Shown here piece by piece: positions 31,302 through 56,250 of a DNA stretch of 64,000 nucleotides. The DNA comes from Hymenobacter sp. (lineage in GTDB: Bacteria; Bacteroidota; Bacteroidia; Cytophagales; Hymenobacteraceae). Numbering within the stretch: the stretch's first letter is position 1; every line of letters starts with the position of its first letter. The stretch spans positions 13,047 through 77,046 of the forward strand of contig NZ_DASVSI010000145.1 in assembly GCF_036388155.1 (NCBI RefSeq), given 5' to 3'. Both the position numbers and the translations under genes were made by a program. Under the pieces are notes generated by a model. The model worked only from the letters and a program-made list of their open reading frames with translations, was not told where the DNA came from and ran no database searches.

Positions 31302-31565
31302 TTATATCAAGTGGCCAATGACGGCAAAATTATCAAATACATTGGCCGTGTGCGGCGCGTCCTTGTCAAGCTCCGCCGTGAGGTCTTGCCCCGCCCAGTG
31401 CTCGTAGTGGTTGCCGCGCCGCCACAGGCGCGACTTGCTCACATCATAAATCTTGCCCTGGTACGCCACCCAGATTTCGTCGCGGTCCTGCCCGTTGCGC
31501 AGGGCCAGCTGGCCTTTGGTATAAGTTTTAGTTGTCAGTTGTTCGTTGTCAGTTGTCTGGCTCAT
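31302..31565 (-). CDS. Cytochrome b5-like heme/steroid-binding domain protein
   Basis: IWVAYQGKIYDVS, HYEHWAGQDLT, APH. The only in-frame ATG near the domain is at 31565. Confidence 0.85.
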   Translation of the reverse strand: MSQTTDNEQLTTKTYTKGQLALRNGQDRDEIWVAYQGKIYDVSKSRLWRRGNHYEHWAGQDLTAELDKDAPHTANVFDNFAVIGHLI

Positions 31566-31624
31566 GAGGTAACAGGTGGGCAATGCAATGCTAACAACTG
31601 ACAACGAACAACTGACAACTAAAA
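31526..31624. repeat. 31-bp perfect inverted repeat built from 7-mer units
   Basis: 31526-31556 TTTTAGTTGTCAGTTGTTCGTTGTCAGTTGT is the reverse complement of 31594-31624; units GTTGTCA/GTTGTTC. Confidence 0.95.
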
Positions 31625-31625
31625 C

Positions 31626-32783
31626 CTAACTCAGCAGGGCTTGCAGCCGAATCCAGCGTTGCGGCAAGTCGCCCTGGGAGGCGTTCAGGTAGTCTTCGTA
31701 AGTGCAGGGCACCACGCGTTTCACGGCGTTGTCGCCTAGGCGCTCTACCTCCATCCACCACTTGTCGGCGCGGCGCGATTTGTAGAACACCAGCTTGTCG
31801 GGATTGCCGGGCAATACCACGGTGTAGGTAAGAAAGCGAAACGTGCCGAAGCCGGTTTCGGGGCGGCGGTGGTAGAAGCCTTCCACGAAATACCACAGCA
31901 TGGTGGCCAGCGTGGCAGCGGCCAAGCCGTTGGGGTCGATGTCGGCCCGGTAGCCGTACAGGCCAAAAGAGCTGAGCTGCTCGTTGTGCCCGGCATACCA
32001 GCACAACTGGGCCGCGTCTTCGTTGCTGAGGCCAAAAGGGTTGGCCGGGTAGTAGCCGGGCGCGTCCTGCCACCGCAATGCCGCAATGTCCACGCTCATA
32101 AAGTCGGCCTGGCGCACCAGTGGCTCGGCCTGGCGGCGGTCCGCCCGCACTTCGCCCACGCTCATGGTTTCAAAATGCAGCTTTTCCAGCGCCACCAGCA
32201 CTTCCGGGGGCGTGAGGTACTGCTGGTGCGCCAGATGCGCCAGGCTGAATATGAAATTGGGCTCGTGCACCAATTGGCGGCGCAAGTGGCTTTCCTCGGG
32301 CGCAACGCTGGAGTTGGGCTCGGCCATGTCGGCCCGCGAGTCTACTACCGTAAAGCTGATGGGGCGGTCCTGCGCTTCGTAGGCCAGGAACTGGCCGTAG
32401 TCCAGGTCGTGGCTGCCGCCAAGCAGCACCGGCACCGTGTTTTCTTCCAGCAGGGCGCCGATGATTTCGCGCAGGCGCTGGTAGGTGTCCTCCAGCGTGA
32501 GGCCGGGCCGCAGGTTGCCCAAGTCCACCAGCCGCACGTTGCCCGTCCCTTTTTGCAATTGGTAAAACCGCTGGCGCACCTCGTTGGCGCCGTGGCGCCG
32601 CGCCGACGGGGGCCCTGCCGCGCTGCCCCGCCACTCGTCCAAGCCCACAAGGGCCACGTCAGCAGCGCGCCAGTCGGGGAAGTTCTCGGTGAAGCGGGTA
32701 GCGTAGGCCGCCAGCGTAGTGGGCACGGGGGCGGCTTCGGTGAGCGTTTCCGGCAGAGGGTCAAAAAACAGGGCCAGGTTCAT
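31626..32783 (-). CDS. Arginase/formiminoglutamase-family protein with degenerate metal motifs
   Basis: DLGN, LLGGSHD, VVDSRAD, SVDI, PANPFGL; extra C-terminal domain. Confidence 0.8.
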   Translation of the reverse strand: MNLALFFDPLPETLTEAAPVPTTLAAYATRFTENFPDWRAADVALVGLDEWRGSAAGPPSARRHGANEVRQRFYQLQKGTGNVRLVDLGNLRPGLTLEDTYQRLREIIGALLEENTVPVLLGGSHDLDYGQFLAYEAQDRPISFTVVDSRADMAEPNSSVAPEESHLRRQLVHEPNFIFSLAHLAHQQYLTPPEVLVALEKLHFETMSVGEVRADRRQAEPLVRQADFMSVDIAALRWQDAPGYYPANPFGLSNEDAAQLCWYAGHNEQLSSFGLYGYRADIDPNGLAAATLATMLWYFVEGFYHRRPETGFGTFRFLTYTVVLPGNPDKLVFYKSRRADKWWMEVERLGDNAVKRVVPCTYEDYLNASQGDLPQRWIRLQALLS

Positions 32784-56159: not shown

Positions 56160-56250
56160 CGGCCACGCCGAACGCAGGGAAGCCCCTCTGCCGCGCAAGT
56201 AATCTATGTACTTACGCGGCAGAGGGGCTTCCCTGCGTTCGGCGTGGCCG
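56160..56250. repeat. 42-bp inverted repeat (1 mismatch, 7-nt loop)
   Basis: 56160-56201 versus 56209-56250; loop ATCTATG. Confidence 0.95.

Follow-up and report, generated by a model that had tools for sequence, protein, structure and literature searches.

A 64,000-nucleotide stretch of a Hymenobacter genome (6.1 Mb, 61% G+C, labelled G000; contig C145:13047-77046), referred to here as the window, carries on its minus strand an arginase-like gene followed by a small gene for a cytochrome-b5-like protein (b5), and the junction between the two is occupied by a long palindrome whose loop contains the b5 start codon. We consider it probable that this palindrome is an old copy of a dispersed, boundary-seeking family of heptamer palindromes, previously undescribed and specific to Hymenobacter, which was absorbed into the b5 coding sequence and has been largely tolerated there. 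An element of this family consists of a 5' arm of TTGTCAG/TTGYTNG units, a local and unrelated loop and, as its 3' arm, CTGACAA/CNRRCAA units closed by CTAAAA; such elements fill the short gap of a few nucleotides from a stop codon to the next start, mostly within strings of co-directional genes. One copy probably entered the arginase-like/b5 junction in an ancestor shared by much of the genus. Because the working b5 start codon lies, unusually, at the loop's 3' edge, the A/C-rich arm would have been taken into the coding sequence as a dispensable, low-complexity N-terminal extension of b5 (MS[L/Q]TTDNEQLTTK). The junction would then have been remodelled repeatedly as a hotspot, with the 5' arm decaying, the element being lost or another palindromic family taking over.

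A repeat finder placed two 31-nt arms, complementary without mismatch, at 31526-31556 and 31594-31624, within a longer repeat (31522-31556/31594-31628) of 35 nt at 97% with one wobble and a 37-nt gap between the arms (table 1). The original prediction, of a perfect 31-bp inverted repeat with a 37-nt loop holding the b5 AUG, agrees both with these coordinates and with the repeat finder. It had also placed one arm 1 nt after the arginase-like stop, correctly: the TAG occupies 31626-31628 and the perfect arm ends at 31624, with pairing in the longer repeat running over the stop codon. Read on the minus strand, the junction runs CTG CTG AGT TAG G TTTTAGTTGTCAGTTGTTCGTTGTCAGTTGT, then the 37-nt loop ending CCTCATGAGCCAG, then ACAACTGACAACGAACAACTGACAACTAAAA CTTATACC. 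Each arm is made of approximately four 7-nt units, detected by Tandem Repeats Finder with period 7 (or 14). Folded as minus-strand RNA, the 151-nt region reached a predicted -70.7 kcal/mol against -36.7 +/- 3.6 for dinucleotide shuffles (z = -9.55), and none of 200 shuffles folded as well.

The 5' arm is non-coding. The 3' arm supplies b5 codons 4-13/14 (TTDNEQLTTK) in the only one of its three frames that is open throughout, namely the frame joining the ATG to the conserved core of the protein, which begins at Y15 (YTKGQLALRNGQ). The description of the second arm as in-frame coding sequence ahead of that core, with no other start in between, holds as well, since between the b5 ATG and the conserved core there is no other in-frame ATG, GTG or TTG. 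The 87-aa protein is annotated identically by public gene callers. Upstream of the ATG the only in-frame alternatives are two TTG codons in or beside the 5' arm, and these were rejected because they are not conserved as starts. Initiation at the loop AUG would yield the predicted N-terminal tryptic peptide (M)SQTTDNEQLTTK or SLTTDNEQLTTK.

Table 1. Features of the arginase-like/b5 junction, and a second short-repeat hairpin elsewhere in the window.
Feature	Position in window	Strand	Basis or remark
Arginase-family (formiminoglutamase-like) gene, 385 aa	31626-32783	-	PF00491, E 1.8e-14; ORF list
5' arm on mRNA (U/G-rich: GGUUUUAG UUGUCAG UUGUUCG UUGUCAG UUGU)	31594-31628	-	Inverted repeat, fold; perfect part 31594-31624
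37-nt loop	31557-31593	-	Holds b5 start codon at loop nt 29-31
b5 ATG start codon	31563-31565	-	Loop positions 29-31 of 37, 6 nt before 3' arm
3' arm (A/C-rich: ACAA CUGACAA CGAACAA CUGACAA CUAAAA)	31522-31556	-	Perfect part 31526-31556
Cytochrome-b5-like heme/steroid-binding domain gene, 87 aa	31302-31565	-	PF00173, E 2e-7
Hairpin of GAATGNGT octamers, 36-bp perfect arms, 9-nt loop	54053-54133	+	Spans a stop-to-start junction

Two familiar types of element with a similar appearance were rejected. The stop-hairpin-start layout, and the GTTAGGC/GCCTAAC motifs present at the inner arm ends, recall an integron attC site; here core and inverse core come in the opposite order, and the genes on either side are housekeeping genes of conserved synteny. 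An intrinsic terminator was likewise dismissed: the hairpin has a 35-bp, A/U-rich stem with ACUUAUACCAAA after it and a loop of 37 nt, and the lack of a U-tract excludes a terminator of canonical type. A search of Rfam returned no family at the gathering threshold, only sub-threshold hits to miRNA-precursor hairpin models (best 39.4 bits, threshold 70).

The arms of the b5 hairpin recur throughout the genome, in which a count restricted to arms of 16 nt or more and loops no longer than 80 nt gave 851 perfect inverted repeats. A strict arm pattern, (CAAC N3) at least twice followed by CAAC, matched 126 arms genome-wide, compared with 0-9 for control tetramers of equal composition. When arms were paired, they formed at least 47 hairpins in which a T/G-rich arm precedes the loop and an A/C-rich arm follows it, and none in the opposite order. 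A typical copy reads TTAG TTGTCAG TTGYTNG TTGTCAG TTGTTAG, loop, CTAACAA CTGACAA CNRRCAA CTGACAA CTAAAA. Stems have a median length of 30 bp with 0-7 mismatches each, and loops measure 8-74 nt, with two further long ones that contain nested elements. The A/C arms share an identity of 0.85 between copies and 0.91 with their own partners, and an all-against-all blastn comparison of the 47 loops yielded only 11-17-nt matches made of heptamer fragments. The b5 copy fits the family on both arms (at least three TTGYYNG units in the 5' arm and at least three CNRRCAA units in the 3' arm, with the T/G-rich arm first), its 35-bp stem and 37-nt loop are within the family range, and its loop is unlike those of the other copies. 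The 47:0 arm order was considered as a sign of function and rejected: if the T/G arm came first in the founder palindrome, it does so in every descendant, whichever way that inserts, so the order is trivially inherited.

The abundance of the family differs sharply between genomes. A four-unit version of the pattern matched 137 times in G000, with a range across the genus of 0-236 matches per genome: 0-2 in, for instance, G001, G002, G012, G017, G018 and G021, 169 in G020 and 236 in G019. Outside the genus, 15 of 16 other genera of the order had 0-1 matches and the remaining one (G027) had 27. This patchy distribution, together with the presence/absence variation at fixed junctions described below, is as expected of a self-propagating repeat. 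Our search of the literature found no paper on Hymenobacter palindromic repeats.

Family copies sit at gene boundaries. Using gene boundaries from a crude codon-usage caller (5060 genes, 86% coding), 36 of the 47 copies lie between co-directional genes, and the gaps between element and gene are mostly less than 15 nt on the stop side and the start side alike. The spacer that remains once the element is subtracted has a median of 18 nt, and 60% of copies occupy junctions of no more than 25 nt, a class to which 16% of all junctions belong and which accounts for just 0.7% of intergenic bases. The terminal TTAG of the element itself furnishes the TAG that stops the upstream gene in several copies, where CTAAAA is followed by the next ATG after 0-10 nt. 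Most copies have an A/C arm ending 3-15 nt short of the next ATG, and arrays that stand alone are aimed at starts as well. Genes immediately downstream include murG, lpxC, lpxD, nusA and icd. The b5 copy conforms on its stop side (1 nt) but not on its start side: the stem ends 44 nt downstream of the ATG, which is in the loop. Only three copies, this one among them, have a negative start-side gap. Of the A/C arms examined, only that of the b5 copy is read through, from an ATG lying shortly before it, into an ORF of substantial length. The b5 loop in G000 begins TAGCATTG, resembling the Bacteroidetes -7 box; a loop promoter giving a b5 mRNA with the A/C arm alone was dropped as a general explanation, though not for the b5 copy itself, and TAnnTTTG was absent from all 47 family copies at any position.

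The history of the b5 junction was examined in other species. Orthologues of b5 are present in all 24 same-genus genomes, and the arginase-like/b5 gene order is kept in 93 of the 110 loci examined. Across approximately 93 Hymenobacter genomes, the junction takes three main states: empty, heptamer hairpin, or a palindrome that resembles a MITE (miniature inverted-repeat transposable element). Empty junctions leave 29-65 nt between the arginase-like stop and the Y codon of the b5 core. Their encoded N-termini include METLPTYT, MSDALKTYT and MIDNDPLPLYT, which are examples of the empty alleles with a shorter N-terminus that an alignment of orthologous loci had been expected to reveal. Outgroup families have short b5 N-termini too (MELKTYT, MNQYT).

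The heptamer state combines ATGAGCC within the loop with an in-frame arm of 42 nt (MSLTTDNEQLTTKTYT), kept in at least eight species. It is found in G000, G020, H. lapidarius, H. cyanobacteriorum, Hymenobacter sp. IS2118 and several metagenome-assembled genomes (MAGs). ATGAGCC stands at the matching place in loci L002, L031-33, L036-38, L057 and L069, with ATGAACC in L040. The distance from this ATG to the TAY codon is 42 nt, in frame, in eight or more species, and changes of length are multiples of three. Variants of the heptamer hairpin occur in H. saemangeumensis, H. persicinus, H. fastidiosus and others, some of them with 130-nt loops and N-terminal extensions of several dozen residues. 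In the MITE-like state, the arm sequence GCTCAGCATGACC provides an in-frame ATG (MTVPENQ...) in several species.

On a quick maximum-likelihood tree, the three states are interleaved among close relatives, which points to the junction as a hotspot of gain, loss and replacement. Intermediate forms were also found: L035 has lost most of its 5' arm (z = -1.5) and still encodes MSLTTDNEQLTTKTYT, and L067 retains the coding arm alone. The original prediction had counted conservation of the N-terminal peptide without the inverted repeat among the observations that would speak against it. The peptide does persist in these two loci after loss of the 5' arm, and this counts against an essential regulatory role for the hairpin. 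Some deeper-branching species that lack the hairpin keep N-termini of the MSLT.D type (L007, L016, L081), suggesting that the insertion is old. The proposal that a short-repeat element was absorbed into a coding sequence is supported by the dispersed family and by an arm that is in frame with the b5 core in at least eight species; judged from comparative sequence, this evolutionary part of the original prediction, empty alleles included, was right and is now documented.

Several individual loci deserve mention. In L041, L042, L044, L062 and L074 a MITE-like palindrome (GTCATGCTGAGCG...GCTCAGCATGAC) lies at the junction, and an ATG within its 3' arm is the b5 start. H. jeongseonensis (L055) has an empty junction that retains a footprint, CAGCATGACCGTTC, with the MITE-like start codon; here the start was thus donated by the repeat and has outlived its deletion. 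In L011 (G019) there is no ATG, GTG or TTG in the b5 frame between the preceding stop and the core, and ATGAGCC is one base out of frame, reflecting either a frameshifted gene or an assembly error in a genome that is 81% complete. L038 and L041 are both labelled Hymenobacter negativus BT442, one with the heptamer hairpin and the other with the MITE-like palindrome, and their b5 proteins are 89% and 82% identical to the query, respectively; at least one label is probably wrong. Typical Hymenobacter arginase-like/b5 loci were also recovered under the labels Janthinobacterium lividum (MAGs; L057, L075, L096 and L100) and Rhodanobacter (MAG; L101). They fall inside Hymenobacter on the tree and are probably mis-binned or mislabelled contigs.

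A second junction, between ftsW and murG, was as variable as the b5 start region in 30 Hymenobacter genomes (L115-L144). It holds a heptamer hairpin in G000 and G020; elsewhere it contains MITE-like, octamer (GGTGAGNT) or GAATTCT-type hairpins or GCTAACA arrays, or is reduced to a near-overlap or almost nothing. The N-terminus of MurG varies with the state of the junction (MRIII... versus MTN.PL...).

Where the heptamer hairpin is present at b5, its two arms have changed in concert. RNAalifold analysis of nine species with the heptamer allele gave 27 pairs, five of them with double (compensatory) changes; pair 22-101, for example, is U-A in four species, C-G in three and G-C in one. On this structure 94.2% of cells are paired, neither the covariation score nor the number of doubly changed cells was matched by any of 500 shuffles, and shifting the partner by 1-3 columns reduced pairing to 24-59%. 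In the coding arm, a number of the compensated changes leave the amino acid unaltered (GAA to GAG, CAA to CAG), and the non-coding arm mirrors them. Across ten species, identity (mean or median) was 0.75-0.78 for the 5' arm, 0.66 for 4-fold sites of the flanking genes and 0.35-0.41, approximately random, for the loop. The covariation and the conservation of the 5' arm together argue that complementarity is actively kept.

The level at which it is kept can be approached through the mismatches. Selection on a sense RNA helix normally makes G·U pairs far outnumber A·C. In the 36 co-directional copies, the sense strand carries 30 G·U, 39 A·C and 30 transversion-type mismatches, and the b5 locus has approximately 10 G·U against 7 A·C. 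With no excess of G·U over A·C, selection on the sense RNA is not indicated, and the strand symmetry suggests that complementarity is kept mainly at the DNA level. Templated correction within quasi-palindromes is a known mutational process; maintenance may reflect such correction or selection on the palindrome as DNA.

Selection of the latter kind raises the question of whether the elements have a function as DNA, with extrusion of cruciforms or hairpins, sites for a heptamer-reading protein, or signals for replication or recombination, any effect on mRNA being incidental. The strand-symmetric mismatch spectrum, the conservation of arms with free loops, and the existence of several unrelated unit types with one architecture would all fit. 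We nevertheless regard such a function as extremely unlikely, as there is no evident reason for a DNA signal to lie within a few nucleotides of stop and start codons, the family is patchy among species and no candidate protein is known.

We turn now to the likely consequences for b5 expression under the reading of an absorbed family element. The stem is expected to form in the polycistronic mRNA and to present the AUG in its 37-nt loop, and initiation would require only the top 4-6 bp to be opened. The predicted opening cost at the b5 start is 11.9 kcal/mol for -12 to +13 (77th percentile) and 19.9 kcal/mol for -15 to +16 (93rd percentile); 241 random genes of the genome have median costs of 7.6 and 9.6 kcal/mol, and 23% and 7% of them equal or exceed b5. 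For genes just downstream of family hairpins the median is 6.3 kcal/mol, no higher than the 7.4 kcal/mol of the background. The cost is thus raised but not exceptional, and a moderate attenuation of b5 might be expected rather than an on/off cage. The original wording, a start codon 'caged' in the hairpin, was correct in placing the AUG in the loop and too strong in its verb: the model has the AUG single-stranded and displayed, and the sequestered part of the b5 mRNA beginning at +10. On present evidence the b5 hairpin alone is not an exceptional regulatory device.

Translational coupling, in which the stem would block de novo initiation on b5 until ribosomes finishing the arginase-like gene melt it, had been offered as one role for the hairpin. 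The stop codon does lie 1 nt from the base of the stem and is paired into it, and the -15 to +16 opening cost of approximately 20 kcal/mol is high. The geometry is weak, however. Going by the known footprint, a ribosome at the UAG should cover approximately 13 nt downstream, about one-third of the 5' arm of the 35-bp stem, whereas the pairs that would hinder initiation are at the top of the stem, approximately 30 nt further on, so that some 20 bp would stay closed. Moreover, the AUG is already single-stranded with an unexceptional -12 to +13 cost, and species with a truncated 5' arm keep both gene and peptide. Coupling is accordingly very unlikely in our view. More generally, the indirect evidence from sequence makes it unlikely that either of the regulatory mechanisms first suggested is what has caused the hairpin to persist.

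The other such mechanism was processing by RNase III. As a rival account of the whole pattern, the hairpin could be a functional intercistronic RNA structure, a signal for processing or stability dependent on RNase III or double-stranded RNA that uncouples the upstream cistron of the arginase-like/b5/murQ-like operon from those downstream, with b5 lowered by a cut between its AUG and its body. The near-perfect 35-bp stem is well above the minimum of approximately 20 bp of double-stranded RNA required, and the host encodes the enzyme (rnc, PF14622 match of 110 bits), so cleavage between the AUG and the b5 body is possible in principle. Covariation of the arms, conservation of the non-coding arm beyond the level of 4-fold sites, the position of the family inside co-directional gene strings without space for promoters, and the missing U-tract, which removes a plain terminator from consideration, are all compatible with it. 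On the other hand, the sense strand shows no excess of G·U over A·C in the family (30 versus 39) or at b5 (approximately 10 versus 7); a cut in the stem would decapitate b5, yet species with the hairpin have a well-conserved b5 core; many close relatives retain the gene although their hairpin is decayed or gone; and copy number varies from 0 to more than 200 per genome within the genus. We judge this account unlikely.

Bacteroidota mostly initiate translation without Shine-Dalgarno pairing and prefer A-rich, unstructured leaders. It could be imagined on that basis that the A/C array is a leader of this kind, or a site for S1, Csp or a CsrA-like protein, which the U/G arm sequesters conditionally, depending on temperature or helicase level. 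Besides the general preference for such leaders, the closeness of most A/C arms to the next ATG and the aim of solo arrays at starts would agree with this. In the b5 copy, though, the array lies downstream of the AUG within the coding sequence and cannot be a leader; at -55 to -70 kcal/mol, the stems are much too stable to act as a thermometer-type switch; mismatches lack strand asymmetry; and arrays adjoin stop codons as closely as starts. Such a switch therefore seems improbable to us.

The nearest described system, which also speaks for a leader function, is the set of TAACTGA heptamer direct repeats that mostly end a few nucleotides from start codons (MacGregor 2015, Front Microbiol, PMC4679880). 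They occur in Beggiatoaceae, cyanobacteria and five Bacteroidetes, the mechanism of their spread is unknown and a post-transcriptional role has been proposed; CAACTGA is seldom found as a direct repeat in the BOGUAY genome (PMC4679880). As in Hymenobacter, the TAACTGA arrays consist of 2-6 tandem 7-nt units, one base apart in sequence (CAACTGA/CAACTAA versus TAACTGA), and they are intergenic, in forward orientation near starts, sometimes overlapping the upstream stop, with a patchy phylogeny. They differ in being single and unstructured, with one inverted pair among approximately 170 sets, whereas nearly every Hymenobacter array has an inverted partner approximately 30 nt away with which it forms a 30-bp stem, and its degenerate units come in fixed order. 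The b5 copy departs from the TAACTGA type both in its units (CAACTGA, CAACGAA/G and CAACTAA) and in its placement, with the array downstream of the AUG; the forward placement just ahead of a start is shared by most family copies.

A further possibility starts from the arms. It may be that the heptamer and octamer hairpins form a distinct class of boundary-seeking repeat in which only the arms are copied, being set on both sides of a resident spacer, and that the stem brings stop and start together for shunt-like re-initiation across the base of the hairpin. Installation of arms alone would explain why copies share arms and have unrelated loops, and shunt-like re-initiation in the Shine-Dalgarno-poor Bacteroidota would explain why the elements are tolerated or even favoured in tight operon junctions before essential genes. 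The b5 copy would then be an exception, showing that the element can donate a new N-terminus. We put this forward as a speculative idea with a small chance of being correct.

Abundant short intergenic palindromes that are co-transcribed as long hairpins are familiar from other bacteria as Correia/nemis, ERIC, RUP, BOX and SMAG elements, and Correia hairpins of Neisseria are RNase III substrates that alter the expression of neighbouring genes. Correia and MITE-like families have conserved interiors and recognisable target duplications, whereas the Hymenobacter copies share arms only, with no duplication or autonomous partner recognised. Of the features of a MITE, the heptamer family thus has the terminal inverted repeats (approximately 30 bp) and lacks shared internal sequence. 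Rickettsia palindromic elements were reportedly described by Ogata et al. in 2000 as in-frame insertions that are translated as a tolerated extra peptide. The b5 copy resembles them as a palindromic repeat inserted in frame in a protein-coding gene, its translation being predicted; they are 100-150 bp long with both arms in the ORF, whereas the b5 hairpin straddles the start with one arm coding and the other intergenic, and there is no sequence relation. The RNase III sites of phage T7, in which internal loops direct single cuts and whose function is demonstrated, are likewise placed exactly between two cistrons of a polycistronic mRNA; the b5 hairpin differs in its perfect stem, its inclusion of part of the downstream coding sequence and the hypothetical nature of any cleavage.

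REP/BIME and REPIN elements are short, high-copy extragenic palindromes, often located between co-directional genes and mobilised by RAYT (Y1) transposases. G000 has four Y1_Tnp (IS200/RAYT-like) genes (C9:12480-12710, C12:61474-61677, C181:2487-2717 and C172:8809-9168). Three of these are flanked by other palindromes and one by none, and heptamer arms flank none of the four. A REP/RAYT association was rejected for the heptamer family, whose arms start GTTTTAGTTG, carry no GTAG/CGTC tag and are internally repetitive. The C181 gene is flanked by GTAGCGTGGACTCTG palindromes and represents a candidate REP-RAYT pair for a separate, 66-copy GTAG-tagged family.

The genome has further palindromes: a MITE-like family of large size (GTCATGCTGAGCG...GAAGCATCTC, 216 perfect copies), REP-like repeats tagged with GTAG, and hairpins of several kinds built from short tandem repeats. 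Among the latter are at least 17 perfect hairpins of the octamer type found in the window (table 1) and approximately eight of a GAATGAR heptamer type; their like layout suggests that several sister families share one architecture. The window also contains a perfect 36-bp palindrome at 56160-56250 (CGGCCACGCCGAACGCAGGGAAGCCCCTCTGCCGCG, 19-nt loop) that resembles a divergent member of the MITE-like family. At C66:50647-50980 in G000, copies belonging to the MITE-like family lie inside the 254-nt loop of one heptamer hairpin, and the b5-junction hairpin of L033 has a second hairpin within its 135-nt loop. The loops of heptamer hairpins thus appear to be insertion hotspots.

Some points weigh against an absorbed copy of a self-spreading family. 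No T/G-A/C arm pair 300-6000 nt apart encloses a single transposase-like unit that could be the autonomous parent (the enclosed ORFs were not domain-searched), and no target-site duplication was recognised, the alleles at the b5 and murG junctions being too remodelled to give a clean filled/empty pair of close relatives. Copies also share arms but not loops. The quick tree is poorly resolved, leaving the number of gains and losses uncertain, and start-side distances, but not stop-side ones, may be biased by the crude gene caller. The comparison of G·U with A·C has modest power (69 transition-type mismatches), and a functional RNA hairpin also predicts both a 5' arm that evolves more slowly than synonymous sites and significant covariation. 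Finally, use of the loop AUG, the fold in vivo and any processing at the b5 hairpin are predictions.

The result at the level of the family is of more interest than the single hairpin: these palindromes fill junctions, are kept as palindromes and repeatedly donate starts and N-termini. If the reading is correct, previously undescribed junction-filling palindromes and their sister families rewrite the first codons and initiation regions of ordinary Hymenobacter genes. At the b5 junction alone, the N-terminus of the protein takes at least three forms in close relatives, two of which came from repeats. The junctions would offer a natural series for the study of Shine-Dalgarno-independent initiation beside very stable structure in Bacteroidota, of the spread of repeats with conserved arms and unrelated loops, and of the long-term complementarity of palindromes. 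For genome annotation, start codons near heptamer-type elements would need to be assigned with care.

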